IMG/VR virus record: IMGVR_UViG_3300042866_000779
Coordinates: 1 to 61,391 of that record
Length of the DNA stretch: 61,391 nt
Strand: one strand, 5' to 3'
Origin: a virus
Lineage: Duplodnaviria; Caudoviricetes
Shown: piece after piece, positions 23,986 to 53,942 of the stretch
Layout of the letters: the number at the start of each line of letters is the position of its first letter
Position numbering within the stretch: position 1 is the stretch's first letter
Position numbers and translations under genes: made by a program
The notes under the pieces: generated by a model
Seen by the model: only the letters and a program-made list of their open reading frames with translations
What the model was told of the DNA's origin: nothing
The model's database searches: none

Positions 23986-25647
23986 TTACGCGACGTAAGT
24001 TTGTGTCGTGTAACTCGCAGGTGTCAGATACACCACGCTGGCATCTTCGCCCCTCGCTTTGCGCCTGCGGGCTATCCAGTCTTCCCACCATGCCTTCTCT
24101 GCCTTGGCTTCAGGCTTGTGGTACTTCATTTCCGCAGCCATGAGGTAACGCATACAGTCCATTAAGTGGGAGACAGACCGTGGGTGCGGCTTGTCGAGGA
24201 CGATGCTGTGACCACCCACCACTGTTGACTGCCGCTTGTACCGCTTGATCTCTCGGATGAAGTTGGGCATGGCACCTTCAAGGACCCGGAGGTAGGGAGT
24301 TCCCTTCGACCGGATGTGCATGGCATTACGGACGCTCTCTATGCCAGCCATGATGTCATCGCTGCCGTGCATGAAAGACGAGCCGGTGGCCTTTGACCGC
24401 ACCCCCAGTAACTCAAGCTGCTCCGCGTACTGTTGGCCCGGGGACTTTCCACCGCCAATGTCTGTCAGGCGGGCACCATGCGAATCTATGATAAAGGCGT
24501 AAAATTGGGGCTGCCCTGCCAGCTTGTTGGCGAACTTCTCGGCAAATACCACGGCGGAACAGTTGGGGATGTACAGTTCGTCATAGAGGAGAACGAAGTC
24601 CCCAGACGGTGGGATGGCCGCGAACATCACCGCACAGATGGCATGGCCCGGGTCGATGGCCGCATACCTGCACCAGTCTGCGGGAATCTGGCCGTCAGGC
24701 AGTTCCTTGCGGGAAAAGCCGTGGACTCCCATGTTGAAACTGCCGTACATGAGAACGGAGTCGAAGGTGAACTCACCCTCCGCTCTCATCCTCAGGACTT
24801 CCTCGCCCTGTGCGGCCCACTGTTCCACAGCTAGGGCACGGGCTTCCTTGGAGATGTGTTCGTTGTCGAGGAACCGCAGGACGAACTTCTTGGGGTTGTC
24901 ATGCCCTTCCTCTGCCGCCTTGTCAGCCCGTTCGCACAGGCCAAAGAGCGCGTCATTCTTGGAGTGCGGGGTTGCCGACCACACCAGCCGCCCTTTGTAG
25001 TCAGCAAGACGAGCTTGTAACTCAGCCAGCCAAGTGCTTTCGGAAGCCAAGTCCTCGTCAATCCAAGCAAGATGGGCACGGTAGCCCTGTGGAGGATCAC
25101 CCTCAGACGAGAAGAAGTAGATTTGCCATCCGTTGGTCAACTCGCAGGACTGCATATACCCTGCGGACTTCAGAACCCAGCTAATGTTCTTGATCATCCG
25201 GGGCGGAATCAGGGGCGGGGAGGGCTTGGCCTCGGACTCCCGGGCCTTGTCCGCAACCGGGTCATACGCCCGCCACTCTTTAGTATCGGGGTCTTGGATG
25301 ATCTTAAATGCCCCTGCCTTGAATAAGCCCCTCACGCACACCATCCCGATGTGCCGCCAGTCGGCCCCCACAACCACCGCTGTGCCGTTTTCCTTCGGGT
25401 ACTTCCCTTCAATGGGGTGCGTCCCGGTTACAGCCCACGCGAACTCCAGCATGGCAGCCGTAGTCTTGCCGCTCCGATTTCCCCCCAGCACAACACGCTC
25501 TGAAGCCATGCAGTCATGGAAGGGTTGCTGGTTGGCATTGGGTCGATAGAGCCTGACAGACTCAAGCTGGCGGGATGCCAACTCCCTCTGTAGGTCGAGC
25601 ATCTCCTGTCTGGAGTGCTGCGAGACATTATCAAGAGGGTTCGCCAT
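23986..25647 (-). CDS. terL: Terminase large subunit
   Basis: Walker A GGNRSGKT, Walker B WIDE, motif III SATP, RuvC-like nuclease IDPG...HLMDCMRY. Confidence 0.93.
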   Translation of the reverse strand: MANPLDNVSQHSRQEMLDLQRELASRQLESVRLYRPNANQQPFHDCMASERVVLGGNRSGKTTAAMLEFAWAVTGTHPIEGKYPKENGTAVVVGADWRHIGMVCVRGLFKAGAFKIIQDPDTKEWRAYDPVADKARESEAKPSPPLIPPRMIKNISWVLKSAGYMQSCELTNGWQIYFFSSEGDPPQGYRAHLAWIDEDLASESTWLAELQARLADYKGRLVWSATPHSKNDALFGLCERADKAAEEGHDNPKKFVLRFLDNEHISKEARALAVEQWAAQGEEVLRMRAEGEFTFDSVLMYGSFNMGVHGFSRKELPDGQIPADWCRYAAIDPGHAICAVMFAAIPPSGDFVLLYDELYIPNCSAVVFAEKFANKLAGQPQFYAFIIDSHGARLTDIGGGKSPGQQYAEQLELLGVRSKATGSSFMHGSDDIMAGIESVRNAMHIRSKGTPYLRVLEGAMPNFIREIKRYKRQSTVVGGHSIVLDKPHPRSVSHLMDCMRYLMAAEMKYHKPEAKAEKAWWEDWIARRRKARGEDASVVYLTPASYTTQTYVA

Positions 25648-34696: not shown

Positions 34697-34859
34697 GGGG
34701 AATCTCCATGAGGGGGAAGACGAACCTACGTTGATTACAAGCACCCTCAGGGAGGCGGGCAATCCTTTGATCGCGTAACTATTGCCCGCCGCGTAACTCA
34801 TGCAGATAATGCGGTTTCAGGCTGAGTTAGTTCACTTCGCTGTATATGGGGACACAGAC

Positions 34860-35006
34860 ATGATTTCCCCAGAGGAGCGGGCCGCACTCCTAGCAGCGTT
34901 CGATGACCCCGTGCCCCTCCACGATCACCCCTTCATCAAAGCCCTCCAAGAGAGACTGCCATGCACCCTAGTCAAAGAACTGCCCCAAAAGGAGAAACCC
35001 CAGTGA
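34860..35006 (+). CDS. Small hypothetical protein
   Basis: GGGGA SD; coupled to the next ORF. Confidence 0.5.
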   Translation: MISPEERAALLAAFDDPVPLHDHPFIKALQERLPCTLVKELPQKEKPQ

Positions 35007-35272
35007 ATGATCCAGTGGCATGGGCCGTGACTATTGGCCCGCCTGACGATGTGTCGGTGTACGAGGCTTATGCAGCCCATCAGAAGGAAGAGGCAGTAGC
35101 AATGGCCGATGAGTGCAGGTTTGGCGACAAGGACAAGCCGCTGCCTCTGGCTCCGCTCTACTTCCAGCCCACCCTCACCGAAGAGGAGCAGGAGGCGGTT
35201 GCCGTTGCGATTGTGGGTTCGCTTCCGGGTCGCGCCGCCACGCTCCGCAAACTCTTGGAGAGGATGAAATGA
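35003..35272 (+). CDS. Hypothetical protein (PVAW...PLY, TLTEEEQEAV motifs)
   Basis: AGGAG SD; GTGA overlap. Confidence 0.65.
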   Translation: MNDPVAWAVTIGPPDDVSVYEAYAAHQKEEAVAMADECRFGDKDKPLPLAPLYFQPTLTEEEQEAVAVAIVGSLPGRAATLRKLLERMK

Positions 35273-35792
35273 CGGCTTTCTGTCAGAGCGTGACGGGAAA
35301 CGGTCAGGACTGTGACGGGAAACTGGCAAGTAACCAACATTCCCAAAGTTGGAAAAGTTTCAGGGGGTGAACTAACAGATATACGCTCACACGCGGGGGG
35401 GGCTCACGGGGCCCGCATGAGCCCGCACAGGCCCGCGATTCTTCGCCCGCCCGCCCCTAGCCGCGACCGCCCGCAGCCCCGCAGAACCGCAGCCACGGCC
35501 CCACACGGGCATTCCCGGGCATGGGCATGGCGTGGCAGTCCCGGTTGGCCCTTGGAACCGAGGGCCAACCTCCCCCATTTCTGGGGGTTTTTCGGCTGAC
35601 CTTCACCATCTTCACCACTTTGGTGATGATTGGCAGTGGCCTTGGTGATGATCGGTTTTCGGCGGCTTCCGGCGGTCTGGTCTGGCCTTGCTTGCGCGGT
35701 TCCTTGCACGGGCTGCGCGTTTGCGGTCATGGGCCCGCGCTGTCTTCCCCGCCCTCGCGTGTGCGCTGTCTTTCGTGTGTGTGTGCGCCCGG

Positions 35793-35821
35793 AATCCCCG
35801 GAGGGGATTTTGAGCCTCTGG
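35793..35821 (+). promoter_or_regulatory. GGA-triloop hairpin + AGCCTCTGG element 1
   Basis: AATCCCC-GGA-GGGGATT-TT-GAGCCTCTGG. Confidence 0.85.
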
Positions 35822-35880
35822 TTGTTGTCGGCAACGGCCAGTGTGGTCGATGCGGCACAGCACACTCAGGGAGCAACGTC

Positions 35881-36084
35881 ATGCACACAGTCGAGCAGTA
35901 CGTCAACGGGGAGTTCTTGGTGGCGGCATGGTTCACCGACATTCAGGACGCATATGAGTTCGCCAACAACATCGACGGGCTGGTCATTCCGAAGGAAATG
36001 ACCGACGAGGGGGCGATTGCCAACCGGCGGCTGGATTTCATGGAGGCCGCTTGCGGGTGGTTCTGTGCGGCTGACGAGCGGTGA
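35881..36084 (+). CDS. Early hypothetical protein
   Basis: CACAC-AGGGAG leader then ATG. Confidence 0.7.
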   Translation: MHTVEQYVNGEFLVAAWFTDIQDAYEFANNIDGLVIPKEMTDEGAIANRRLDFMEAACGWFCAADER

Positions 36085-36101
36085 GCCTCACACACACGCT
36101 G

Positions 36102-36130
36102 AGTCAGGGGACCTGACTTTGAGCCTCTGG
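36102..36130 (+). promoter_or_regulatory. GGA-triloop hairpin + AGCCTCTGG element 2
   Basis: AGTCAGG-GGA-CCTGACT-TT-GAGCCTCTGG. Confidence 0.85.
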
Positions 36131-36136
36131 TTGGTG

Positions 36137-36182
36137 GCGGTGGCTGATCGGCAGCCTGACGGGTTCGATGCCCGTTCACCGC
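36137..36182 (+). ncRNA. tRNA-like mini element 1 (acceptor-like stem, D-like arm, T arm; no anticodon arm)
   Basis: GCGGTG/CACCGC; GCTG-ATCGG-CAGC; GACGGG-TTCGATG-CCCGTT. Confidence 0.7.
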
Positions 36183-36222
36183 ACTGGTTCGATTGTTCGA
36201 TTCACACACTGAGGGTGCTGAC

Positions 36223-36474
36223 ATGACAACGGCTGAATTCAAGGCGGAAATGCGGGTTGAGCGTGAGGAACTGTGCGTCGAATGGGGCTTCGCCAACCGA
36301 TTCACGGCGATGATCTTCCAGTGGGTCTGCGACGATTTCAACCGGATCGACTACCCGGACCTTGACGAGGCTTCCGAGGCCATTCGGGAGTACGTCATCC
36401 ATGTGAAGAAAGTGCCTGCCTACCGGGTGCGGCACGTTGACTTCCACGAGATTGCACTGTGCCTGCGAGGCTAG
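36223..36474 (+). CDS. Early hypothetical protein
   Basis: CACAC-GAGGG leader; stop abuts hammerhead 1. Confidence 0.75.
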   Translation: MTTAEFKAEMRVEREELCVEWGFANRFTAMIFQWVCDDFNRIDYPDLDEASEAIREYVIHVKKVPAYRVRHVDFHEIALCLRG

Positions 36475-36525
36475 GCCGAAACCGGGGAAACCCGGTCGCA
36501 CCGTAATGCGGTGCCTGACGAGGCC
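36474..36525 (+). ncRNA. Type II hammerhead ribozyme 1 (predicted cleavage after C36497)
   Basis: GGCC-GAAA-CCGGG(GAAA)CCCGG-TC-GCACCG(TAATG)CGGTGC-CTGACGA-GGCC. Confidence 0.93.
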
Positions 36526-36562
36526 GTTCGTCCCCCTGATTGGTCGATGGGGTAACTCGACT

Positions 36563-36600
36563 GCCTCCCGGTGGACGTTCCATCGGGGGGCTTTTCTTTT
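36563..36600 (+). terminator. Intrinsic terminator-like hairpin + U tract upstream of ORF 36623
   Basis: GCCTCCCGGTGGA/TCCATCGGGGGGC then TTTTCTTTT. Confidence 0.55.
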
Positions 36601-36622
36601 CTTCACGCGAAGGATCACACCC

Positions 36623-36892
36623 ATGCTGGTGCCTGACTACAACCAGATGATCGACGTTTTCCCGGGCGAAACCTATGAGGTTCTCATGCCCTATTCCGAA
36701 GTGTGTATGCACATGGGAATCGCGGGGACCGTTCGACGGATTCTGGTCCGCGAAGCGGGGCGGGGCGTTTACCTGCTGAACGATGACCTGACAACGGGCC
36801 CGCACATGACGAGCGGCGAGGCCGGGATTCTGGGTTGCTCACACAGCCACCCATACACCTACGGGTTCAAGTACCAGTCCCCCCGTGCGTAA
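36623..36892 (+). CDS. Early hypothetical protein
   Basis: AAGGA SD; ATG at 36623. Confidence 0.7.
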   Translation: MLVPDYNQMIDVFPGETYEVLMPYSEVCMHMGIAGTVRRILVREAGRGVYLLNDDLTTGPHMTSGEAGILGCSHSHPYTYGFKYQSPRA

Positions 36893-36919
36893 CCAACGGA
36901 GTTGGTTTTGAGCCTCTGG
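36891..36919 (+). promoter_or_regulatory. GGA-triloop hairpin + AGCCTCTGG element 3
   Basis: AACCAAC-GGA-GTTGGTT-TT-GAGCCTCTGG. Confidence 0.85.
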
Positions 36920-36924
36920 ATGGC

Positions 36925-36974
36925 AGCGGTTGGCTGACGGAAGCCACACCCCGGTTCGACTCCGGGGAACCGCT
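36925..36974 (+). ncRNA. tRNA-like mini element 2
   Basis: AGCGGTT/AACCGCT; GGCT-GACGGA-AGCC; CCCCGG-TTCGACT-CCGGGG. Confidence 0.75.
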
Positions 36975-37011
36975 CTGGGTTCGGGTTCGATCACACACAA
37001 GGGGCACCATC

Positions 37012-37221
37012 ATGCTGGGCGAATATCCCGTGGCGGTTCGTGACGCGGTGACTGAGGCGAGGGCGACGAAAGAAACCCGCTATGTGATCCAGATGGATCA
37101 CGGCGACGGGCGGGCTTTCACATTCTGCGACGAGCAGTATCTCGACGGGCCGGAATACAACGCTTTCGACGGTGTTGTATGGGCGACCGTCTTCCCCGAT
37201 GGGGAAATCTGCCGGGAGTAA
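37012..37221 (+). CDS. Early hypothetical protein
   Basis: CACACACAAGGGG leader; stop just before hammerhead 2. Confidence 0.7.
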   Translation: MLGEYPVAVRDAVTEARATKETRYVIQMDHGDGRAFTFCDEQYLDGPEYNAFDGVVWATVFPDGEICRE

Positions 37222-37224
37222 CCA

Positions 37225-37276
37225 AGCCGAAACCGGGGCAACCCGGTCTGCCAGTAACGCTGGCACTGACGAGGCT
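37225..37276 (+). ncRNA. Type II hammerhead ribozyme 2 (predicted cleavage after C37248)
   Basis: AGCC-GAAA-CCGGG(GCAA)CCCGG-TC-TGCCAG(TAACG)CTGGCA-CTGACGA-GGCT. Confidence 0.93.
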
Positions 37277-37301
37277 ACACACTCACAACGGGAGCCATTC
37301 A

Positions 37302-37658
37302 ATGGCACAGCAATTGGACGAATTCACGCGGCAATTTCTGGAAACCGCACTGTGGTCTTCGACGGACTTGGAAACCGACAAGCCGCTGGATGACACGCAT
37401 GACATCGAAGACTTTGCCCCCGCTACGTTGGCGGAACTGGTCGCGGATTGCAAGGCTTTTCAGGCCGACAACGCTGCCGACATTGCCGCCGATCCGATCC
37501 GGGCTGGACACGATTTCTGGCTGACGCGGTGCGGCCACGGGGCGGGCTTTTGGGATGGCGACTGGCCGCACGACGCTGGAAAGCGACTGACGGCAGCGTC
37601 CAAGGTCTACGGCAACGTGGACTTGTATGTGGGTGATGACGGGCTCGTGTATGCGTAA
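37302..37658 (+). CDS. Phage early hypothetical protein (GHDFWLTRCGHGAGFWD motif)
   Basis: GGAG SD; motif I recognise from other phage hypothetical proteins. Confidence 0.8.
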   Translation: MAQQLDEFTRQFLETALWSSTDLETDKPLDDTHDIEDFAPATLAELVADCKAFQADNAADIAADPIRAGHDFWLTRCGHGAGFWDGDWPHDAGKRLTAASKVYGNVDLYVGDDGLVYA

Positions 37659-37685
37659 TCAACGGAGTTGATTCTGAGCCTCTGG
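37657..37685 (+). promoter_or_regulatory. GGA-triloop hairpin + AGCCTCTGG element 4
   Basis: AATCAAC-GGA-GTTGATT-CT-GAGCCTCTGG. Confidence 0.85.
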
Positions 37686-37690
37686 TATTC

Positions 37691-37739
37691 GACGGTTGTG
37701 GTTCGGCCACCGTCCGGGGTTCGATGCCCCGGAACCGTC
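37691..37739 (+). ncRNA. tRNA-like mini element 3
   Basis: GACGGTT/AACCGTC; GTGG-TTCGG-CCAC; CCGGGG-TTCGATG-CCCCGG. Confidence 0.75.
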
Positions 37740-37773
37740 CTGTGTTCGATTGCCCACACTTGGAGACACGACG

Positions 37774-38169
37774 ATGCACACGCCAAACATTCCGCAGAAA
37801 ACTCTCCCGCACCAGTTCATGGTGTGCGATGACGGCACCCTGAATAGGGTGGTCAAAGTCGATGGGGGGCTGTCGCTGGTGGAGGTCCGGGGGAATTACA
37901 AGCGGCACCACCGGGAAATCAAGACGGTGGCTGACCTGAAAGCCTGCCTGCGGGCTGGGAAATACGCATGGCCCGGTGGCTATGCCTGCTACTTCATCAC
38001 CTCTGACGGTGCAGTCCTGTCCTTTGAGGCAGTGCGGCGAGAGTTTGCGGTGGTCGCCTATGCGGTGAAGGCCCACCACAACAGCGGCTGGCGGGTGGTG
38101 GGGCTGGGATGCACCGCAGAGGATGACGAGGCCCCGGTCTGCGACCACACCGGCAAGGAAATCGACTGA
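37774..38169 (+). CDS. Phage hypothetical protein (YAWPGGY motif)
   Basis: GGAG SD; AWPGGY...DG...CDH motif. Confidence 0.75.
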   Translation: MHTPNIPQKTLPHQFMVCDDGTLNRVVKVDGGLSLVEVRGNYKRHHREIKTVADLKACLRAGKYAWPGGYACYFITSDGAVLSFEAVRREFAVVAYAVKAHHNSGWRVVGLGCTAEDDEAPVCDHTGKEID

Positions 38170-38239
38170 CGGCATCCAACCACCCCGCTCTGCGGAGCGG
38201 GGACATTGGGGATCGTTGGTTACACACACGAAAGGGGGC

Positions 38240-38437
38240 ATGGATTTTATGAACACGGGATCAGTGGTTTTTCTGGCCCTCTTGTTCGTCTGGTTTTTTG
38301 GCGACTGGTTCTATAGGGATGGGCTGGCAAACGGGTTTTACAACTTAGCCAGCTTTGGGTTTTGGGTTTTCTTTTTTGGCCCCCTCTGGTGGGTCGGATG
38401 GATTGCTGTAGCACACGCCATCATTCACACGTTTTGA
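38240..38437 (+). CDS. Small aromatic-rich membrane protein
   Basis: Two hydrophobic segments; AAAGGGGG SD; start 38240 or 38249. Confidence 0.6.
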   Translation: MDFMNTGSVVFLALLFVWFFGDWFYRDGLANGFYNLASFGFWVFFFGPLWWVGWIAVAHAIIHTF

Positions 38438-38458
38438 CACACACGAAAGGGATCGACC

Positions 38459-38851
38459 ATGAAATTCGACCGGAAATTCAACAAGTATGTTTGCGTTGGG
38501 GACACGATCAAGGCAGACATCACCGACAAGTTGCAACTCGTTGCCACTCTCGTCTTCGACGGCGACTGCAACCCGCAAAACGAGGGCTGGTATGACGAAG
38601 CCGACGTTGAGCGGTGGAAGAATGACGAGTGGCATTTCGTGGGGGTTGTGCTGTCCGTTCAATCGCACGACGGCACGATCAACAAACAACTCGGCTCCCT
38701 CTGGGGAAACGAGGCCAACCTCAGGGAAGACAACGACCACTTGACGGACGTTGCCAACGAGTTGATTGACGAGCGGGAAATCGTGGCCGCACTGCGGGAG
38801 ATTTACGAGCCCGTAACCCGGGCGATTAATACTCTCACACGCACAGCCTAA
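38459..38851 (+). CDS. Early hypothetical protein
   Basis: ACACACACGAAAGGGA leader. Confidence 0.75.
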   Translation: MKFDRKFNKYVCVGDTIKADITDKLQLVATLVFDGDCNPQNEGWYDEADVERWKNDEWHFVGVVLSVQSHDGTINKQLGSLWGNEANLREDNDHLTDVANELIDEREIVAALREIYEPVTRAINTLTRTA

Positions 38852-38874
38852 CGGAGTTAGGCACGAGCCTCTGG
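38846..38874 (+). promoter_or_regulatory. GGA-triloop hairpin + AGCCTCTGG element 5
   Basis: GCCTAAC-GGA-GTTAGGC-AC-GAGCCTCTGG. Confidence 0.85.
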
Positions 38875-38894
38875 TTGGTATCGGTTGGATGACG

Positions 38895-38926
38895 GCCCCG
38901 GCAATTTCGCCGGGGCTTTTCTTTTT
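38895..38926 (+). terminator. Terminator-like hairpin in the leader of ORF 38951
   Basis: GCCCCGGC-AATTTC-GCCGGGGC-TTTTCTTTTT. Confidence 0.6.
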
Positions 38927-38950
38927 CACACACACAAGGGGACCGCAACG

Positions 38951-39325
38951 ATGGCAAGCGACAACTACACCGAGAACATGGCCGACATTTTCGAGTGCCC
39001 CCGGGAAAGGCGGATGGTGCTGGAAATCCTGAAGGCATGGGAGTCCGGCGGGCTGCCGAAGGACTTCGATGACAGGGGCGTGAAGCTGGCGTTCAACCGC
39101 AGTAGCGGCAACGTCTTCCTCGTCAACGAGGAATATCAGGTGGCAATGGTGGAGGGGCTCTGTCTGGAGTCCTTCTACTCCAGCCCATACGAGGGCAAGG
39201 AGGGGTTCTTCACGGACCTGCTCTCCGAATACCCGGATATGCACCGCGAGGATCAGGAGTGGTTCCGCGACATCGCAGAGGCGACCGGCAAGGAGGACTT
39301 GCTGCCCGCCTTGGATGACGAGTGA
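38951..39325 (+). CDS. Acidic phage hypothetical protein
   Basis: FNRSSGNVFLVNEEYQVAM motif; stop just before hammerhead 3. Confidence 0.75.
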   Translation: MASDNYTENMADIFECPRERRMVLEILKAWESGGLPKDFDDRGVKLAFNRSSGNVFLVNEEYQVAMVEGLCLESFYSSPYEGKEGFFTDLLSEYPDMHREDQEWFRDIAEATGKEDLLPALDDE

Positions 39326-39327
39326 CA

Positions 39328-39381
39328 GGGCGAAACCCGGGGCAACCCGGGTCTGGCAGTGACGCTGCCACTGATGAGCCC
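39328..39381 (+). ncRNA. Type II hammerhead ribozyme 3 (predicted cleavage after C39353)
   Basis: GGGC-GAAA-CCCGGG(GCAA)CCCGGG-TC-TGGCAG(TGACG)CTGCCA-CTGATGA-GCCC. Confidence 0.94.
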
Positions 39382-39400
39382 ATTACACAAGAGGTGACCG

Positions 39401-39646
39401 ATGACGAACGAGGACAAAGCCAAGCTGTTCCGCATCGTGCGGGACCGACTGAACTGCGGGAAGGTTTGGGGCAAGCGGAAGCACGTTGAGTCCGCGATCT
39501 TCGACGCCCACAACGGCAGGCCCGATGGGTTGCTGGTGACCAACGAGAATATGTACCTGTTCCGGCAGTACCGGAACGGGGTGTCGCCGTCGCCTGCCAA
39601 GCTGGTGAACGAGGCACTGGCATGGAAGGAAGGAGGTGCAGCATGA
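39401..39646 (+). CDS. Early hypothetical protein
   Basis: GAGGTG SD. Confidence 0.7.
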   Translation: MTNEDKAKLFRIVRDRLNCGKVWGKRKHVESAIFDAHNGRPDGLLVTNENMYLFRQYRNGVSPSPAKLVNEALAWKEGGAA

Positions 39647-40104
39647 AGCGGTATCAGGTGCGGTTCCACCTTGGGAAAGGTGAGAACCACGGGAAATGGC
39701 AGGTTAAGAGCATGGCAGGGGTGCGGTACTACGATCCCGCTGCCGTGAGCCTGACCCTGTTGGATTGCCAACTGCGGAATCAACCCGCGACGGCAAAGAA
39801 GGTCTATGAAGGTGCGAACAAGTCGGTCTGTGCGTGGATCGACTGCAATGAGGTGCTGGTCGAGGGGCCAAGCACCCCGACAGGATTGCCGGTGTCCTAC
39901 AACCCCCGGATTGCACCGCACTGGCGGAGCTTTTGCGGGGAGAACATCGACGGCAAGGGGTTCAACTTGCTGCGGTCCAACTGGATTCAGCTTGTCTACA
40001 CGGGAGAGCGGACGATCACGGTCGGCGGTCTGGTGCAGCTTGCACCACCGGCTGATGAGCGGGAGGAAGAACTGCGGATGACCCGCATGAGGAGGGAGCG
40101 ATGA
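39643..40104 (+). CDS. Early hypothetical protein
   Basis: AGGAGGT SD; ATGA overlap. Confidence 0.75.
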   Translation: MKRYQVRFHLGKGENHGKWQVKSMAGVRYYDPAAVSLTLLDCQLRNQPATAKKVYEGANKSVCAWIDCNEVLVEGPSTPTGLPVSYNPRIAPHWRSFCGENIDGKGFNLLRSNWIQLVYTGERTITVGGLVQLAPPADEREEELRMTRMRRER

Positions 40105-40334
40105 GCCACACCACGACGATGATGGACATGACCCGGGGTGAGCTTTCCATCCTTGCCACCGCTCTTGAGAGAGAGTGGCAGCGGACTGGCAAGCTGTGGA
40201 CCGATGGTAACCGGGACGGTTGGTATGACGAGAAGGCGAAGGAGCGGGTGGCCGTCCACCTGCATGAGACTGAGCGGCTTTTCAACAAGGTCAACACACG
40301 CATCAAGGAGATTGACAATGGCAGTGCCACATGA
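40101..40334 (+). CDS. Hypothetical protein
   Basis: GGAG SD; ATGA overlap. Confidence 0.65.
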   Translation: MSHTTTMMDMTRGELSILATALEREWQRTGKLWTDGNRDGWYDEKAKERVAVHLHETERLFNKVNTRIKEIDNGSAT

Positions 40335-40596
40335 CAGACCCACGTTCGATCAGATCATGCACTCGCTCAAGGTTTCTGGCGAGTGCGGCGACGTTCTTTG
40401 CACCCATGCGGCAGAGGAAATTGAGCGGCTTCAGGCTTTGGCAGGGGCTGCCCCTGAGTTGCTGGCTGCGGCAAACGAACTGCTTGCCAACGCCACGCGG
40501 TTTGGGTTTGTGGGCGAGGATTACTCCGCACTGCCTGTCATTCATGAAGCAGTCGTGAGGCTGTCAAAGGCTTGCCGGAAGGCAGAAGGGGGGTGA
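40318..40596 (+). CDS. Hypothetical protein (AAPELLAA motif)
   Basis: AAGGAG SD. Confidence 0.7.
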   Translation: MAVPHDRPTFDQIMHSLKVSGECGDVLCTHAAEEIERLQALAGAAPELLAAANELLANATRFGFVGEDYSALPVIHEAVVRLSKACRKAEGG

Positions 40597-40621
40597 CGCA
40601 TGAACTGGTAACGCACACACG

Positions 40622-40650
40622 GCTCTTCGGAGAAGAGTTTTAGCCTCTGG
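40622..40650 (+). promoter_or_regulatory. GGA-triloop hairpin + AGCCTCTGG element 6
   Basis: GCTCTTC-GGA-GAAGAGT-TT-TAGCCTCTGG. Confidence 0.85.
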
Positions 40651-40660
40651 TTGGTATCTG

Positions 40661-40693
40661 ACCCCCGGCAATTTCGCTGGGGGTTTTCTTTTT
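40661..40693 (+). terminator. Terminator-like hairpin in the leader of ORF 40712
   Basis: ACCCCCGGC-AATTTC-GCTGGGGGT-TTTCTTTTT; near-copy of 38895. Confidence 0.6.
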
Positions 40694-40711
40694 GACACAA
40701 GGGGATTCGAC

Positions 40712-41125
40712 ATGGCGACGAGCGACATCATTTCGGCAGTGGCGGCTGGCCAGACTGTGACCAAGGCCAAGCGGGTTGGACGGGGCAAGGCTGCGGTCGA
40801 GGTGACCATCACCCGGACGGCACCTGAGGTGAAGGTGGTGGACGAGACAGTGAAGGAGGAGCCGGTCAGCTACAGCAACAAGCTGCCGGTGGACGAGGGC
40901 AAGGTGAGGACCGACATCCTCCCGGGCCTTGCTCTGATCCGGTACTCCCGGGGTTATTCGGTGCTGGAGCAGAAGGGAAAGACCTACAGCGGGGCGAAGA
41001 CCAAGCTGCGACGGGTGCTGTACCGCGAGGACCTGATTGCCACTGCCAACGCTTTGCTGGCCGAAGCGGAGGGGGCCCTGTCCTATGACGAGGCCCACGG
41101 CAATGCGGATGCCGTGCCCTTCTAG
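40712..41125 (+). CDS. Early hypothetical protein
   Basis: ACACAAGGGGA leader; stop abuts hammerhead 4. Confidence 0.75.
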   Translation: MATSDIISAVAAGQTVTKAKRVGRGKAAVEVTITRTAPEVKVVDETVKEEPVSYSNKLPVDEGKVRTDILPGLALIRYSRGYSVLEQKGKTYSGAKTKLRRVLYREDLIATANALLAEAEGALSYDEAHGNADAVPF

Positions 41126-41179
41126 TCCGAAACCGGGAGCCCTGCCCGGTCTGGCCGTGATGCGGCCACTGATGAGGAC
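41125..41179 (+). ncRNA. Type II hammerhead ribozyme 4 (predicted cleavage after C41151)
   Basis: GTCC-GAAA-CCGGG(AGCCCTG)CCCGG-TC-TGGCCG(TGATG)CGGCCA-CTGATGA-GGAC. Confidence 0.93.
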
Positions 41180-41201
41180 ACATTCACACAGGAGCCATTC
41201 A

Positions 41202-41819
41202 ATGGCAACGACAACGAGCATCTTGAGCGACACGATCATGGCACAGGCGAAGGCTTTCAAGGAGGCCCGGTCGCGGTTCGATGAGCAGTTCATGGACTGG
41301 TCCCGGGGCATCCCGCCTCTGGCACCGGAACACTTCTGGCCGATGGTCGATGAGTTCCGCAAGGTGGTGGTGGACACCAGCCGGTACGGGACTGGCCCGG
41401 TGGGTGAGGCGGCGGCGAATGAGTTCATCCGGCTGGCTGCGGTGAACGGCGGCGACATTGCTGCGGCTGTCCACTTCGCCCTGTCGTGGCGGCACTACAC
41501 CCGAAGGGCATCTGCCTGCGGCGACAAGTGCGAGTTCGACTGGATGCGTGGCGACGATAGCTACGGTGACCTGATGGATGCCCTGCCCCTTGCTGGCCAG
41601 CGTGTCAACGAAACGCTGGGGCTGGGCAAGTTCGATTCGCTGAACCACTTCAACAAAGAGGTGGGCAATGCCTGCGAATGGGCAGCGGAGGGTGAAGATC
41701 GCAGCAGGCTGAAGAAGATGGTGCTGTCTGGCGAGAGCTACTTCGCATCCTCTCTTGAGGAGGCAGCACAGAAGTGGGTGGTGATTGAGTCCCGCAACTA
41801 CGGAAAGGGAGGTGAGTGA
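41202..41819 (+). CDS. Early hypothetical protein
   Basis: AGGAG SD; ATG at 41202. Confidence 0.75.
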   Translation: MATTTSILSDTIMAQAKAFKEARSRFDEQFMDWSRGIPPLAPEHFWPMVDEFRKVVVDTSRYGTGPVGEAAANEFIRLAAVNGGDIAAAVHFALSWRHYTRRASACGDKCEFDWMRGDDSYGDLMDALPLAGQRVNETLGLGKFDSLNHFNKEVGNACEWAAEGEDRSRLKKMVLSGESYFASSLEEAAQKWVVIESRNYGKGGE

Positions 41820-42046
41820 TGGCCAAGAAGAAGCACCACCCCGACTACGATCCCGAAGTCGAGGCGGGTTCCGTGTACCTACAGAAAGAGGTGGCAGTGC
41901 AGTTGATGCTGGCGATTGGGTACTCGCTCAAGCACAACAAGGGGATGGACAAGCTGGACGAGCAGCGGTTGTTAGTGGCGGGGACAGTGATCAACAACGT
42001 GTTCGCATTGATTCCCCCACCCAAGAAGAAAGCGAGGAGCAAGTGA
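41819..42046 (+). CDS. Hypothetical protein
   Basis: GGAGGTG SD; TGATG overlap. Confidence 0.7.
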   Translation: MAKKKHHPDYDPEVEAGSVYLQKEVAVQLMLAIGYSLKHNKGMDKLDEQRLLVAGTVINNVFALIPPPKKKARSK

Positions 42047-42357
42047 GGACAACGATGACTCTGGTGCTGGCACTGGTAGCTGGCACCACGTTCGGTCAGT
42101 ACCCCTACGTCCAACCGGGATGGGGGTACTGGAACAAGGCGGAAGCCATGCGACAGCAAGCATGGCAGAACCAACAGTGGCAGCGGGATCAGTGGCAGCG
42201 TGAGCGTGACTACCTGTGGGGTGGTGACTCTCTCGACTACGGGCAGCGGGCAGCCAACCTTCGCAAGACAAAGGAGGAAGCGAGGTCGCTGCGATTGCAG
42301 AACGACAGGATGGAAAGCCAAGGCAACCCATACCTGAACAATCCGTTTGAACGATAG
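42043..42357 (+). CDS. Secreted Q/W-rich hypothetical protein
   Basis: Signal-like MTLVLALVAGTTFG; GAGGA SD. Confidence 0.6.
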   Translation: MRTTMTLVLALVAGTTFGQYPYVQPGWGYWNKAEAMRQQAWQNQQWQRDQWQRERDYLWGGDSLDYGQRAANLRKTKEEARSLRLQNDRMESQGNPYLNNPFER

Positions 42358-42358
42358 C

Positions 42359-42387
42359 TTGACGATGTACGCATGTATATGTAGACT
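42359..42387 (+). promoter_or_regulatory. Sigma-70-type promoter TTGACG-N17-TAGACT with an imperfect palindrome in the spacer
   Basis: Near-consensus -35/-10 with a 17 bp spacer; TGTAC-N4-GTATA at 42366-42379. Confidence 0.7.
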
Positions 42388-42397
42388 CACGGGCACA

Positions 42398-42426
42398 AGG
42401 TAACGGAGTTACCTCTAAGCCTCTGG
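42398..42426 (+). promoter_or_regulatory. GGA-triloop hairpin + AGCCTCTGG element 7
   Basis: AGGTAAC-GGA-GTTACCT-CT-AAGCCTCTGG. Confidence 0.85.
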
Positions 42427-42511
42427 TTAGTAGCAGCAACAACAAGGACAGACCCCGGCAGCCACTTCGGCTGACCGGGGTTTGTTCGTTTACCCCCAAA
42501 GGAAATGTGCA

Positions 42512-43381
42512 ATGACCCCCCTCAACGGTTCGATTGTCGAGCGTGTCCGTAACTTCTTCCCCGATGTGACCAAGCAGGTCTTGTACTCGGGTGACATGAA
42601 GCCGACTCCCCACATGGGCCTGTTCCGCAATGACACGGGAGCTTGCTTCGGTCCTGCGGTCAGTGCCAACTACGAGCTTCACACCACCGATGACATCTGT
42701 GCCTTGGTGGAGGCGAGTGAGCCAGTGCTGGGTGAGTGCGGCGACGTTCAGTTGGGCTTCAGAGATGGTCACTATGTGTCCATCCAGCCCACCAAGGACC
42801 ACCTGATTACCGTTCACAAGAACGACACGGTGTTCCCCCGGCTGATCGTCACGGCCCGGTACGGGCAGGCTTTCACCGCCACCATCGGGTTGTTCCGGGT
42901 GGTGTGCGGCAACCTCGCCATCTTCCAGAAGGTGGCGGGCACTTCGGTGCGGATCAGGCACACCTACTCCCTTCGCTCCAAGATGGAGGACCTCATTGAG
43001 GACTTCCACTCCCTGCGGAGCGGGGTGGGCAACCTTGAGGTAGCCATCAAGGAGATGGCTGACCGCAGGGTGCGGCTGGCTGACTTCCTTGACGGCATCT
43101 ACGGCACCCCGGACGAGGGTGCTACGGAGCGGTCGATCACCATGCACCGCAACCGGACGGAGCAGATTGTCCGGCGGCTGATGCGGGAGCAGGTGGCACT
43201 CGGTGAGCAGACCCAACTCAACGAGGTCAGTGCGTGGGCTGCGTTCAATGCGGTACAGGGATTCATCCAGCATGACTCCCGCCGCAAGGGCAAGCCGGGT
43301 GATTTCGACCGGGCCATCATGGCTCTGACGGACCCGAAGGTTCTTCAGGCCCAGCACTTGGCTCTGACGATGGCGGTCTAG
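42512..43381 (+). CDS. DUF932/DUF945-like phage/plasmid protein
   Basis: LFRNDTG..FG.VS.NY; LFRVVCGN; IRHT; SAWAAFNAVQGFIQH. Confidence 0.75.
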   Translation: MTPLNGSIVERVRNFFPDVTKQVLYSGDMKPTPHMGLFRNDTGACFGPAVSANYELHTTDDICALVEASEPVLGECGDVQLGFRDGHYVSIQPTKDHLITVHKNDTVFPRLIVTARYGQAFTATIGLFRVVCGNLAIFQKVAGTSVRIRHTYSLRSKMEDLIEDFHSLRSGVGNLEVAIKEMADRRVRLADFLDGIYGTPDEGATERSITMHRNRTEQIVRRLMREQVALGEQTQLNEVSAWAAFNAVQGFIQHDSRRKGKPGDFDRAIMALTDPKVLQAQHLALTMAV

Positions 43382-43453
43382 TTCATCGGGGGAAGGGGCG
43401 GCGGCTGGCTCGTTGCTGGTCGCCGCCCCGCCCTATTTCAAGGGAGATGAAAC

Positions 43454-43798
43454 ATGGCGAAGTATGAGTTCACCACTGCGGCTGGTAATCGCATTGTTGA
43501 GAAGTGCCTGACGCTTAACAAGGAGAAGTGCTTTGGCTGCATCCCGTATGAGTACGTCGATCAGTACCTGCGGGACGAGGACTATCGCAGTGAGTACGCA
43601 GTGACAAAGTTTGTGGAGTGGCTGAAGGTCAACTCCAAGAGCAGTTCGTCTGCTGTGAAAGTGCTGGGATTGGTGGCTTGCGGCATGGCAGACGAGTTAG
43701 TCCGCGACAAGAGCTTCATCGGCAATGTGGAATCCTTCCACGCTGCCATGACGCATCGGTTCGGAGTGCATGAATCCAACGTAGTGAAAGAGGGGTAG
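43454..43798 (+). CDS. Hypothetical protein
   Basis: GGGAG SD. Confidence 0.7.
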   Translation: MAKYEFTTAAGNRIVEKCLTLNKEKCFGCIPYEYVDQYLRDEDYRSEYAVTKFVEWLKVNSKSSSSAVKVLGLVACGMADELVRDKSFIGNVESFHAAMTHRFGVHESNVVKEG

Positions 43799-43803: not shown

Positions 43804-44121
43804 ATGCAACCACTCATCAGGCTTGATAGCTACCGGGTTAGTGAGCGGGTTGTCCTTCGTAAGGGCACCCGGTTTCGTGCGACGGGAGGACCGCTGTTCC
43901 GGCTGGCCAGTGGGGAGGAGGTGAAATTGGGAGCGAAGGGTCCCTTCACCTTCCTCGCCTTCACCAAGCGTGGATCATGCGAGGTGATCGAAGCACTCGA
44001 CAAGGATGGATCGTTTGTGCCCATGCACATCAAGGGCAGAAGGAGAAAAGTGACCGGCGAGATTGTGACCAAACCGTACCAGATCAAAGGCACCATCAGA
44101 AAGAAAGGCAGAGTTCGATGA
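43804..44121 (+). CDS. Basic hypothetical protein
   Basis: GAGGGG SD. Confidence 0.7.
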   Translation: MQPLIRLDSYRVSERVVLRKGTRFRATGGPLFRLASGEEVKLGAKGPFTFLAFTKRGSCEVIEALDKDGSFVPMHIKGRRRKVTGEIVTKPYQIKGTIRKKGRVR

Positions 44122-45213: not shown

Positions 45214-45450
45214 ATGCCCAACACCGCAGTAGAATTGACCGAGAGACAGGAAGAAATCCTGCGTTACGTTGCCAGCCATGTCGAACTGAATGGGTTCCAA
45301 CCCAGCTTCAGGGAGATGATGGATCGGTTCAAGATCAGGAGCCTGAACGGAATCACCTGCCACCTCAAGGCTATGGAGAGGAAGGGTGTCATCCAGTGTA
45401 ACTTCAATACCTCCCGTGCAATCTCGTTCAACTGGAAGGAGTGGCTATGA
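45214..45450 (+). CDS. Stand-alone LexA-type winged-helix DNA-binding domain (no peptidase domain)
   Basis: LTERQEEILRYV...GFQPSFREM...SLNGITCHLKAMERKGVI. Confidence 0.85.
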   Translation: MPNTAVELTERQEEILRYVASHVELNGFQPSFREMMDRFKIRSLNGITCHLKAMERKGVIQCNFNTSRAISFNWKEWL

Positions 45451-46283
45451 AGGCATACATCTACACCCGTGTCTCAACTGTGGATCAGAACCTGACCCCG
45501 GAGTGGCAGGCCAGCGTGTGCCAGACCTACTACGAGACAAGCCTTAAAGACAAAGGCTATGAACTGGCTGGTGTGTTCCATGACCACGGTGTGTCAGCTT
45601 GGAAAATCAACTGGCGTGACAGGCCAAAGGGCAGGGAGTTGTTCAACTTGGTCAAGCCGGGGGACATCATCATTGCCCCCAAGCAAGACCGTGTGTTTCG
45701 TTCAGCCCGGGACAAAGAGAACACCATCCACTACCTTCAGCAAGTGGGGATCGACATTGCGATTCTTGACGCAATGCTGGACACCACTACCGCACCGGGC
45801 AGGTTTGCCGCCCGCATCATCGCAGCGGGGTGCGAGTTTGAGAGTGACACCAAAAGCGAGAGGCAGAAGGCTGCCCACTCTGTTCGGAAGATTCACAAGT
45901 TGCCCATGAAGAAACGCCCACCGGCTGGGTGGAAGTGGGACCGGGCGATTGATGAACTGGTCCCAGACTGGGACGAGCGGCGATTGCTGGCCATGATCTA
46001 TGACCTGAGGGATCGCGGCATTCAGACAGTCGCTGGCTCTGCCCGCACCCTCAAGGACAACGGGGTCAAGCGTGACTGCGGCTACGGCTACAACAAGGCG
46101 TGGCTGTGCCGTGCATACGGCAGCTTCTTGAGGAACTTCCCCCCGGAAGGATTCACCAAGTCCCGTGGCAACACCAAGGTGGCAGTGAAAGCTGGGCGGG
46201 TTAGGTCCTCTTTGTCTCGTGCTGAACGCGAGAGAATCCTGCGCTCGACCGAAGTCGCCCCAGTTTTGCGGCCATCAACTTAG
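45447..46283 (+). CDS. Serine recombinase (resolvase family)
   Basis: YIYTRVSTVDQ; DHGVSA; RPKG; DRVFRS; EFESDTKSER. Confidence 0.9.
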   Translation: MKAYIYTRVSTVDQNLTPEWQASVCQTYYETSLKDKGYELAGVFHDHGVSAWKINWRDRPKGRELFNLVKPGDIIIAPKQDRVFRSARDKENTIHYLQQVGIDIAILDAMLDTTTAPGRFAARIIAAGCEFESDTKSERQKAAHSVRKIHKLPMKKRPPAGWKWDRAIDELVPDWDERRLLAMIYDLRDRGIQTVAGSARTLKDNGVKRDCGYGYNKAWLCRAYGSFLRNFPPEGFTKSRGNTKVAVKAGRVRSSLSRAERERILRSTEVAPVLRPST

Positions 46284-52706: not shown

Positions 52707-53254
52707 TCACCTCCATGCGTAATTGGTTCGATCCCCAAGACTCCATCCACCGACTGCTTTCGCGGGCGACCACGCCGCTTCTTCACTGGAGCATCCGGCT
52801 GGCTGCCTGATGGATGTCCGTGTCCTGCCTCTGGGCGTACCTCCCCACCCAACGCTGGCCCCACTCCCGCTCCGACCACTGGGACTGGACGAACTTGATC
52901 CTCTCCGCGAAGTCCTCTGGGATCGGGCGCAACTTCCCGCTCCTCGCTGACCGGCGTTGCTGGATGAACGCGGACTTCAGTTCGTGGAACCGGCACTGCG
53001 GCATCCGGTTGCGAACCTCCATGAACTCCAGTCCCTGCGACACCAGTTGGCTCAACAGCAACTCGTCCTCGTCCGTCATCTCGCGGAAGTAAGCCATCGA
53101 AGAAGTTCTCCGCTTGGGTGTCCAAGGCCCGCTGCATCGTTCGCAACTCAGCGAACACCAATGGCAGCACCTTCATCAGCACGTTGGGCAAGTCATTGAG
53201 GGTGGCCTTGCACAGGTAACCCTCAAGCTGGTCTATGTCGCTCTGGCTAAGCAC
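52703..53254 (-). CDS. Hypothetical protein with C-terminal KKRRGRPRK AT-hook-like motif
   Basis: GGAGGAGG SD; stop overlaps the csrA start. Confidence 0.6.
   Translation of the reverse strand: MLSQSDIDQLEGYLCKATLNDLPNVLMKVLPLVFAELRTMQRALDTQAENFFDGLLPRDDGRGRVAVEPTGVAGTGVHGGSQPDAAVPVPRTEVRVHPATPVSEEREVAPDPRGLRGEDQVRPVPVVGAGVGPALGGEVRPEAGHGHPSGSQPDAPVKKRRGRPRKQSVDGVLGIEPITHGGE
52783..53097 (-). CDS. Nested alternative-frame hypothetical protein
   Basis: 104-aa ORF with protein-like composition (PEDFAERIKFVQSQWSERE). Confidence 0.45.
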   Translation of the reverse strand: MAYFREMTDEDELLLSQLVSQGLEFMEVRNRMPQCRFHELKSAFIQQRRSARSGKLRPIPEDFAERIKFVQSQWSEREWGQRWVGRYAQRQDTDIHQAASRMLQ

Positions 53255-53942
53255 TGACCACCTCCTCCTTTGGGAGAAGGGCACCGAACTGGCGGCGCAG
53301 CTTGGCCATCTCGTCAGCACTCAGGTCGCCGCTCTCGACCATCCCGTCGGCCTGACCCATGACCTTGGCCAACTCGGCGGGCAGCTTGACCAGCGTCTTG
53401 CACTTGGCTTCCACCCTCCTGAACAGATCGTTCTTGGGTGTCTTGGGTGCAGGGGCAGGGTCCTTCTCCTTGGCCACCTCGGCGTTGACCTGAGAGTGAG
53501 CTTCCTCGGCTTGCTCAAGGTCTTCGGCACCAACGCTCCAGCCACCGGCAAGCTGCAAGAAGAGTTGCTTCTTGGTGTAGGTGGACGCAGCCTCAAGGGA
53601 CTGGTTGTCCTCCCTGCGGTTGCCGTTCTTGTCGATCATGTCCCGCATAGGGAGGACGCACGACAACCACTCTCCCGTGTTGTGCATCAGCCGTCCGACC
53701 ATGACCAACTCGGTGCCCATGTAACCAGTCTGAAACACCGGCATGGGGAAGCCGTGCTTGTTCAGGGCAGGGAGCAAGGCCACGCAGATGTCGCCCAGAG
53801 TCGAATAGTCAAACTTGCCGTACTCATTGCGGCCCGTCTTCCTGATCGGCTTGTACTCCATCTGTGCCTTTGCCAACGCAGTTACTAACTGCTTGGTTTC
53901 CGGGGAAGAAGTGACGCCGCGAATGTAGTTGTCGATTTCCAT
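53247..53942 (-). CDS. erf: ERF-family single-strand annealing protein
   Basis: LVTALAKAQ...K.G.N....Y..L.DI...L.KHG; LMHNTGEW; ASTYTKK. Confidence 0.85.
   Translation of the reverse strand: MEIDNYIRGVTSSPETKQLVTALAKAQMEYKPIRKTGRNEYGKFDYSTLGDICVALLPALNKHGFPMPVFQTGYMGTELVMVGRLMHNTGEWLSCVLPMRDMIDKNGNRREDNQSLEAASTYTKKQLFLQLAGGWSVGAEDLEQAEEAHSQVNAEVAKEKDPAPAPKTPKNDLFRRVEAKCKTLVKLPAELAKVMGQADGMVESGDLSADEMAKLRRQFGALLPKEEVVSA

Follow-up and report, generated by a model that had tools for sequence, protein, structure and literature searches.

What separates the small genes of a phage early block when the gaps between them are filled by a few recurring RNA-like structures? The question is raised by a viral DNA of 61,391 nucleotides (nt) (Duplodnaviria; Caudoviricetes; IMG/VR record IMGVR_UViG_3300042866_000779), analyzed here at its full length and called the window. 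It is the whole virus record, with direct terminal repeats, a rating of 100% complete and a GC content of 59%. On the plus strand, the early block at 35.8-42.5 kb contains seven copies of a hairpin with a GGA loop and a linear 9-mer behind it (the GGA element), three tRNA-like parts and four type II hammerhead ribozymes, all in mRNA sense (Table 1). A first-pass annotation had described these as parts that recur in a fixed order between the open reading frames (ORFs), and the four units that it listed are present exactly as described. The observation holds, well beyond chance expectation, and within a narrow clade of phages it is conserved and shows covariation.

Relatives were obtained from protein and pattern searches and comprise five records (G001 to G005, three of them 100% complete by CheckV estimate) and a number of fragments. 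All five genomes retain the same parts, together and in the same order, with compensatory changes in the stems; this is the co-occurrence, as opposed to a random arrangement, that the annotation had expected covariance models to reveal. In every genome a structured leader lies within ~50 nt downstream of the GGA element and is followed by an ACACAC tract, a ribosome-binding site and an ORF; within the early block of the window, the ACACAC tract precedes almost all ribosome-binding sites. The leader is a tRNA-like part (13 of the 14 tRNA-like matches stand in this position), a terminator-like hairpin or another hairpin. Both tRNA-like units that had been listed are present, and the window has three tRNA-like parts, not two. 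As had also been claimed, each of the four window hammerheads closes the first ORF after a GGA element, an arrangement with a chance of 15/2380 = 0.006 if the ORFs are taken as equivalent. Across all genomes 10 of 10 hammerheads follow the first ORF of a GGA unit, a count that includes homologous copies and is not independent. Only four of the seven window GGA elements lead to an ORF with a hammerhead; GGA-1, GGA-4 and GGA-7 do not.

Covariance models found none of the three parts in the five complete genomes of a sister clade (~53% terminase identity), and all three were likewise absent from two distant DUF932 relatives (L269 and L270; 40% identity). The system is thus a young one, restricted to a single clade. 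Within the clade, modules of different kinds occupy homologous positions. The leader that follows hammerhead 1 in the window stands behind a GGA element in G003 and G004, and G002 has a tRNA-like part where the window has hammerhead 2. At the site of hammerhead 4, a different hairpin module is found in G001, G002 and G004, and nothing in G003. Because the modules interchange in this way, they may well do related jobs at the RNA level, and this interchange is the best internal evidence for such a role. Two further recurring leader modules were also seen, with a covarying hairpin, the motif GGAUCG..GGUU(CGA) and ACACAC.

The hammerheads are very probably real ribozyme genes, judging from their core, fold and covariation. 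The core (CUGANGA, GAAA, GUC) is intact in all four window copies, and all eight aligned copies have the catalytic requirements (CUGANGA, GAAA, A15.1-U16.1 and a cleavage triplet ending in H). Minimum-free-energy folding gave all three stems in three of the four copies, in agreement with the consensus fold (stems I and III looped, stem II open); the fourth gave stems I and III only, from an input range that left out the first stem II base. Three of the four copies have a GNRA loop on stem III. Double changes occur in 8 of 17 pairs among the eight copies, with stem III uninformative because it is invariant. The covariance model returned 10 matches of at least 49.9 bits, all in the clade of the window phage and none in G002. 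Stem II of hammerhead 1 overlaps the final base of the g2 stop codon. These features fit RNA cutting by self-cleavage, which would take place at the positions predicted in Table 1.

Hammerheads were also sought among viral contigs by a scan for stem III, which returned 56 stretches, all of them examined by script or regular expression. A hammerhead was recognized by regular expression in 31 of the 56, and five stretches (L130, L161, L228, L233 and L205) had a GGA hairpin of at least 6 base pairs (bp) on the same strand, four of these five belonging to the clade described here. Three unrelated viral contigs, L242, L206 and L196, carried 11, 9 and 5 hammerhead-like sites by regular expression in 4-10 kb and no GGA hairpins. 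The homologue of hammerhead 3 in G001 (L251:11470-11567, the same as L228:2346-2446) has the same core, a stem I that is fully covaried and an insertion of ~45 nt in the loop of stem III. A weak hammerhead-like match on the minus strand at 43809-43880, antisense to the early genes (21.2 bits, E 0.002), is probably non-functional because its stem I has only ~2 bp.

Each tRNA-like part stacks an acceptor stem of 7 bp directly on a T arm and has one further small hairpin; there are 13 consensus pairs and zero bases between the two helices. The T loop has the motif GGUUCGAnnCC, in which all 10 copies share the bases G53, U54, U55, C56, A58 and C61. Compensatory change was found at 9 of the 13 pairs. 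The covariance model gave 14 matches of at least 61 bits, all in early blocks, and the next match scored 19 bits. Thirteen of the 14 begin 29 nt after a GGA hairpin, and the distance from the 9-mer to the acceptor stem is fixed at 5-6 nt. Viral contigs scanned for the tRNA-like pattern gave 66 stretches, of which those from the relatives L130, L160 and L161 were used. That the fold is real is highly likely. An acceptor stem with a T arm is the minimal shape known to be cut by RNase P, and the tRNA-like parts fit cutting by host RNase P and RNase Z; a cut by RNase P, assumed from this shape, seems to us slightly more probable than its absence.

Conventional searches do not recognize these parts as tRNAs. 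ARAGORN reported 0 tRNA or transfer-messenger RNA (tmRNA) genes in the whole window and rejected all three tRNA-like parts. The Rfam mascRNA-menRNA family (RF01684) listed part 3 only, at 22.7 bits and E 0.53 against a gathering threshold of 42.5. The motif GGUUCGAU, shared with the two further leader modules, also trails each tRNA-like part. By eye, the leader after GGA-5 (38874-38905) starts like the 5' part of tRNA-like part 2 (36920-36945), with CGGTTGG.TGACGG in common; this tRNA-like start running into a terminator hairpin suggests a chimera that arose by recombination within modules.

The GGA element is delimited by its 9-mer and its hairpin. The exact 9-mer AGCCTCTGG occurs seven times in the 61-kb window, always on the plus strand and always within 35813-42426. 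When one mismatch is allowed it occurs 31 times, against 23.8 +/- 4.9 in shuffles, so that only the exact copies stand out. All seven lie 3 nt 3' of a perfect 7-bp stem capped by the triloop GGA, and the bases after the 9-mer are TTGG or close to it. A covariance model built from 33 copies and used in searches of up to 774 kb recovers the seven window copies and nothing more in 61 kb. From all sources it gives 42 matches of at least 34 bits (lowest 34.3, next 16.9), all in this clade and all on the sense strand of the gene that they precede. In the 33 aligned copies, for which rows were selected by requiring seven pairs, 231 of 231 stem cells are paired and double changes occur at 7 of 7 pairs; the seven copies of the window were found through the 9-mer alone. 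The triloop is GGA in 28 copies, GAA in three and AGA in two, mostly closed by C-G. The stop codon of the upstream ORF often lies inside the hairpin, a position that suits a role as a 3' cap. No ribozyme or other Rfam family matched the element at E<=10 within 35000-43500, and it is therefore not a known self-cleaving class.

The 9-mer is constant inside each genome and differs between genomes, and the neighboring stems drift freely. Four types were distinguished across six records: AGCCTCTGG in the window phage, RCCCTCTGG in G001 and G005, CCCTGTTGG in G003 and G004, and CCCAGTT.. in G002. A free-standing HNH endonuclease gene that adjoins the terminase gene in some relatives, and is not present in the window, has its own GGA element upstream, in which the 9-mer is of the type of the resident genome in both G004 and G005. 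One recently imported segment of G003 retains a foreign 9-mer type. The uniformity of the 9-mer in each genome and the match of the HNH cassette to its resident type suggest a reader encoded by the phage genome.

A number of identities for the element were tried and set aside. For a guide RNA acting in trans, the complement of each genome's 9-mer was searched, with inspection of non-self matches only, and no syntenic, co-varying partner supported the idea. Inspection led us to reject a sigma-70 promoter inside the element, an extracytoplasmic function (ECF)-type promoter, an integron attC-like or serine-recombinase site, and a Chi-like site or upstream small ORF, because the stem arms vary in sequence or the motifs are not shared by all genomes. 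An exact scan of viral contigs for the GGA element in the window's form returned at least 116 stretches, and the matches in the 80 listed, one each, were taken as chance.

The modules are also the places at which gene content changes. Between the window and G001, hammerhead 2 with its leader matches over 84 nt at 100% identity and GGA-4 with its tRNA-like part over 127 nt at 94%, and the ORFs that flank these shared modules have no blastn match. In place of g4, g5 and g6, G001 has unrelated ORFs; it also lacks g7, g10 and g13 and carries one more cassette of GGA element, tRNA-like part and ORF. Homology between the two stops at, or within a few nt of, the edges of modules and ORFs (36205, 37014, 37223, 37306, 37650, 37776 and 38165), and G005 is without g1 and GGA-2. 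Gain, loss and replacement of genes exactly at the boundaries of the parts had been predicted from the window, and this prediction is borne out; the annotation had also proposed that the parts may act as homology for shuffling early genes. Conservation of the modules but not of the ORFs suggests that the modules serve as recombination homology, and, with an Erf-like annealing protein and a PDDEXK nuclease encoded by the phage, recombination at these joints is the natural cause of the shuffling.

Transcription signals are interspersed with these parts. Terminator-like hairpins with T tracts lie on the plus strand at 36563, 38894, 40660 and 42464. Downstream of three of the seven GGA elements (38846, 40622 and 42398), such a hairpin stands before the next ribosome-binding site and leaves no room for a promoter: GGA-5 and GGA-6 are directly before their terminators, and GGA-7 is ~25 nt before its own and 10 nt after a conserved sigma-70-like promoter candidate. 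The other four precede tRNA-like or other leaders. The promoter candidate at GGA-7 is kept as TTGACA-17-TAGACT in G002 and as TTGACG-17-TATCGT in G003 and G004. A promoter scan of 34800-43500 placed two sites, compared with 1.8 expected from shuffles, and none inside a GGA element. On the minus strand at 23930-23990, a terminator-like hairpin with a T tract was seen just after the terminase stop codon and 15 nt before the next late ribosome-binding site; since this case lies in the late genes, terminator hairpins just before gene starts are a general habit of the phage and extend beyond the early block.

From these structures and their placement we infer a model in which the early RNAs are divided into gene-sized units by interchangeable RNA modules at ORF boundaries; as a whole, it falls a little short of an even chance in our estimation. 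Host RNA polymerase would read the rightward early block as long RNAs. The type II hammerheads would cut themselves after GUC, leaving the upstream ORF with an end formed by the GNRA-capped stem III and a 2',3'-cyclic phosphate, and leaving the downstream RNA with a 5'-OH directly on the hairpin of stem I. The tRNA-like minihelices would recruit host RNase P on their 5' side and RNase Z or RNase E on their 3' side. The GGA element (7-bp hairpin, GNA triloop, genome-specific 9-mer and UUGG) would be an RNA-level boundary signal with a phage-encoded reader. It would mark the start of a unit and cap the end of the upstream message, and it would control passage through, or use of, the structure after it, whether tRNA-like part or intrinsic terminator. 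The modules would also provide homology for recombination by Erf and exonuclease, which would swap single genes. A more ambitious version, which we consider doubtful, is a three-part insulator grammar in which each early gene forms a self-contained expression unit that can be swapped: a clade-specific, co-evolving protein would read the hairpin and 9-mer as a short-range antiterminator or site-specific endoribonuclease, the tRNA mimics would draw in host RNase P and RNase Z, and the hammerheads would cut after the first gene of each unit, with the three as interchangeable punctuation marks in the RNA.

Several observations weigh against this model. An RNase P cut 6 nt after the 9-mer would strip the GGA hairpin from the downstream message, which sits badly with a role in 5' protection. 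Each genome has seven to eight GGA copies, unlike known processive antitermination sites, and some terminator-like hairpins (those behind hammerhead 1 and behind the terminase gene) have no GGA element. No candidate GGA-binding protein was identified. The tRNA-like parts have no D arm, anticodon arm or encoded CCA, and carry a 3-5-bp hairpin instead. Three of the hammerheads score 32.3, 31.1 and 29.0 bits with Rfam Hammerhead_II (RF02276), below its gathering threshold of 37, and the copy at 36474 is not listed at E<=10; at gathering thresholds, Rfam has no match in the whole window. Inspection of the hammerhead loops (URAYG) and tails, made by eye with no dedicated computation, showed no pseudoknot between loop I and the 3' tail. 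The relatives are all close (terminase 75-94% identical), so that many of the counts are not independent. Finally, the C-GNA-G triloop is chiefly known for an unusually stable DNA hairpin and as the core of N4 promoters, which hints at action at the DNA level, and only 1 of 231 GGA stem cells is a G.U pair.

The rival explanations concern mainly the GGA element, for which we considered read-through control, end protection or processing, and a phage-specific promoter; no reading fits everything. It probably acts in RNA, with a roughly even split between read-through control on one side and end protection or processing on the other. As a promoter, it would let a phage-encoded or modified polymerase or factor start each unit, and the hammerheads and tRNA-like parts would merely trim the products. 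This would explain why an element heads each unit from the first (35793) onward and always points the same way as the genes, why the late-region HNH gene of G004, G005, L271, L272 and L290 brings its own copy, and why the 9-mer is genome-specific, as expected if promoter and polymerase co-evolve. Stem-loops are paired with promoters in PeSL cassettes too. The likeness to the N4 virion-polymerase promoters extends to a 5-7-bp stem that is free in sequence if paired, a 3-nt loop with a central purine and a CGGAG core identical to that of the N4 P2 promoter hairpin (33 of 33 copies fit), but in N4 the template strand carries the GGA loop, and transcription begins 5' of the hairpin on that strand (PMC4496689, PMC13492108). 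Here the loop is on the strand of the ORFs, ribosome-binding sites and ribozymes, so that an N4-type start would run antisense to the ORFs; the conserved 9-mer is on the far side of the hairpin, and the early block lies inside the genome, not at an end. No RNA polymerase, virion polymerase or sigma factor was matched among the 38 different ORFs scanned (30 against PHROGs, 20 against Pfam and 12 against both), although a very divergent enzyme is possible. By inspection, the six bases on each side of the hairpin are unlike -35 and -10 boxes, and the promoter scan placed no site within. Three copies would also fire into a terminator 20-45 nt downstream, and GGA-7 already has its sigma-70-like promoter. 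We regard a promoter role as unlikely.

Somewhat less improbable, but still doubtful, is a sharper form of the read-through idea, in which the element is a nut-like or rrn boxB/boxA-like site and a phage protein bound to the nascent hairpin and 9-mer permits read-through of terminators. The loop is purine-rich, and the phage-specific variation of the element recalls the specificity of N for boxB in lambdoid phages. The arrangement fits as well: ORF, hairpin, box, terminator and ORF at GGA-5 and GGA-6, and promoter, hairpin, box, terminator and genes at GGA-7, with the same in all relatives. In rrn boxB-boxA, located directly behind the promoter, a hairpin is likewise followed, 5' to 3', by a linear box (PMC10250234). 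Three of the seven window copies, however, precede a tRNA-like part rather than a terminator, half of the seven to eight copies per genome have no terminator downstream, and in the window no GGA element accompanies the terminator behind hammerhead 1. The 9-mer is only loosely like boxA, with its consensus GCUCUUUA (the boxA of the host may differ), and it varies between phages. No arginine-rich, N-like protein came up, though none was specifically searched for. Action in DNA is the least probable of the alternatives, and in our view a slim prospect: the element would form a strand-specific, single-stranded hairpin for recombination, priming or cassette mobility, or would be a small selfish repeat that plays no part in expression. 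The C-GNA-G triloop is exceptionally stable as DNA, and mini-hairpin DNA of GCGNAGC type is the subject of one report (PMC13037366); alternating purine-pyrimidine tracts are frequent immediately 5' of the hairpin, recombination breakpoints fall at the elements, and these belong to one young clade whose sister clade is without them. The near-lack of G.U pairs also agrees with action in DNA, although we set G.U usage aside as uninformative between RNA and DNA. Against it stand the strict position and orientation relative to genes, the fixed spacing to the tRNA-like part, and a loop and 9-mer that are strongly constrained on one strand. The sole recombinase is a small serine protein of resolvase type, the scanned ORFs yielded no HUH or tyrosine recombinase, and the stem arms vary freely, which makes a sequence-specific recombinase unlikely. 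The first-pass proposal that the phage cuts its early transcripts is partly supported: the hammerheads and tRNA-like parts have sound, covarying structures, and the GGA element may be a transcription signal instead of a processing site.

How does the proposed division of the early RNA relate to known systems? In the early region of T7, RNase III cuts polycistronic RNA between genes into stable, hairpin-ended messages. Early polycistronic RNA of the present phage would similarly be cut between genes into individually stable messages, but ribozymes, RNase P and RNase Z would make the cuts, and 7-bp hairpins are too short for RNase III. Mitochondrial transcripts are punctuated by tRNAs, and the 3' end of MALAT1 is made at mascRNA, in each case through a tRNA-shaped element cut by RNase P and RNase Z. 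By analogy, a cut at the tRNA-like parts would free an upstream RNA capped by the structure just 5' of the cut; unlike those systems, this is a phage, the D and anticodon arms are missing, and the mascRNA score is far below its gathering threshold. Among the papers listed by full-text searches of a limited collection of literature, none had a title or abstract opening that described tRNA-like punctuation of phage mRNAs.

The hammerhead part of the system is already known. Type II hammerheads flank single genes in phages and prophages, and the report by Perreault et al. (2011, PMC3088659) draws the same inference of processing into gene-length mRNAs; it also describes a pseudoknot between loop I and the 3' tail in most type II examples, critical for fast cleavage in those tested. 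The hammerheads described here resemble these in type and in lying in intergenic gaps of phage gene blocks. They differ in occurring only after the first ORF of a unit, in alternating with two other module types, in having no evident pseudoknot by inspection and in scoring below the Rfam cut-off. Gene shuffling at conserved joints has likewise been published: the PeSLs of T4-like phages are recurring regulatory cassettes through which early ORFans are shuffled (Arbiol et al. 2010, PMC2839356; Comeau et al. 2014, PMC4122927). In both cases repeated, composite intergenic stem-loop motifs flank small early ORFans and provide homology for insertion, deletion or replacement of single genes. A PeSL, as described there, combines a consensus sigma-70 promoter with a terminator stem-loop, whereas the present modules are ribozymes, tRNA-like parts and a hairpin with a 9-mer and without sigma-70 boxes. 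Theta (HDV-like) ribozymes adjoin phage tRNAs that are real suppressor tRNAs (PMC10879173); small ribozymes and tRNA-shaped RNAs occur together in phage transcripts there as here, but the ribozyme class is different and the tRNA mimics of the present phage are non-decoding and separate protein genes. Thus, of the combination that the first-pass annotation took to be undescribed, the tRNA-like punctuation and the GGA/9-mer signal are new, while ribozyme-flanked phage genes and shuffling cassettes have precedents.

If the cuts are real, three RNA devices in a compact natural system, one of them borrowed from host tRNA processing, would decouple neighboring genes, and this would account for the ability of early genes to be expressed in any context despite rapid shuffling. 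The idea from PeSLs that conserved regulatory joints drive phage mosaicism would then extend from promoters and terminators to RNA-processing cassettes. The cleavage coordinates predicted here are directly testable, the change of hairpin and 9-mer between sister phages offers a handle for finding the reader protein, and the parts could serve as tools for gene insulation. The insulator grammar, if true, would be the first case of tRNA-style punctuation in mRNAs of bacterial viruses, and synthetic ribozyme insulators would have a counterpart in nature.

Table 1. Features of the early block and related loci. Positions are those of the window unless a contig is named; g, ORF; aa, amino acids; CM, covariance model score.
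Feature	Position	Strand	Remarks
GGA element 1	35793..35825	+	hairpin 35793-35809, 9-mer 35813-35821; CM 48.7 bits
g1, 67 aa	35881..36084	+	GGA element 2 directly after, no hammerhead
GGA element 2	36102..36134	+	closing pair G-C instead of C-G
tRNA-like part 1	36131..36199	+	minihelix ~36137-36183, then CUGGUUCGAUU trailer; CM 73.6 bits
g2, 83 aa	36223..36474	+	first ORF after GGA-2
Hammerhead 1, type II	36474..36526	+	predicted cleavage after C36497; CM 77.0 bits
Leader C, upstream of g3	36527..36622	+	small hairpin and terminator-like hairpin 36563-36601
g3	36623-36892	+	
GGA element 3	36891..36923	+	g3 TAA stop codon inside stem
tRNA-like part 2	36920..36989	+	minihelix ~36926-36974; CM 84.5 bits
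g4, 69 aa	37012..37221	+	
Hammerhead 2	37225..37277	+	predicted cleavage after C37248; Rfam 31.1 bits; CM 77.7 bits
g5, 118 aa	37302..37658	+	phrog_1915, function unknown
GGA element 4	37657..37689	+	
tRNA-like part 3	37686..37756	+	minihelix 37691-37740; CM 61.3 bits
g6, 131 aa	37774..38169	+	then covarying hairpin leader 38170-38236, not hammerhead
g7, g8	38240-38437, 38459-38851	+	
GGA element 5	38846..38878	+	g8 TAA stop codon inside stem
Terminator-like hairpin and T tract	38894..38927	+	between GGA-5 and g9 ribosome-binding site
g9, 124 aa	38951..39325	+	
Hammerhead 3	39328..39382	+	predicted cleavage after C39353; Rfam 29.0 bits; g10-g13 (39401-40596) next
GGA element 6	40622..40654	+	only G.U pair seen, at stem base
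Terminator-like hairpin and T tract	40660..40695	+	before g14
g14, 137 aa	40712..41125	+	
Hammerhead 4	41125..41180	+	predicted cleavage after C41151; Rfam 32.3 bits, E 0.0016; g15-g17 (41202-42357) next
Sigma-70-like promoter candidate	42359..42387	+	TTGACG, 17 nt, TAGACT; AT-rich patch; ends 10 nt before GGA-7
GGA element 7	42398..42430	+	
Terminator-like hairpin and T-rich tail	42453..42491	+	hairpin listed at 42464; before g18
g18, DUF932	42512-43381	+	
Small serine recombinase	45447-46283	+	resolvase N-terminal domain
Erf-like annealing protein	53247-53942	-	
PDDEXK nuclease	54446-55612	-	DUF3799
Further leader modules	38170-38236; L251 ~12750-12850; L254:3481-3545		window, G001 and G002, respectively
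HNH gene and GGA element	L262:4529-5360; L263:1325-1365 (minus strand)		G004 and G005, respectively; also L271, L272, L290

The early block is one of three gene blocks in the window. The minus strand at 1-35.4 kb includes genes for tail proteins, the portal, the large terminase and the major head protein, and the minus strand at 50-61 kb includes those for a helicase, the Erf-like annealing protein, an HNH endonuclease and the PDDEXK nuclease. The plus-strand block runs from 35.8 to ~50 kb and consists of small ORFs, mostly of unknown function, together with the DUF932 protein and the small serine recombinase. The largest ORF of the window (1254 aa) had no Pfam, PHROG or PDB match, and a search of genome contigs found no prophage relative of the terminase. 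GGA element 1 opens the early block, with no ORF upstream of it on the same strand. In the divergent gap between the late and early genes, at 35590-35670, the 7-mers TTCACCA and TTGGTGA occur twice each; TTGGTGA overlaps the complement of TTCACCA, which gives an inverted arrangement, and the repeats look like operator or iteron sites. This repeat region differs among the relatives, and the blocks that flank it, such as TTTCGGCTGACC, are conserved.

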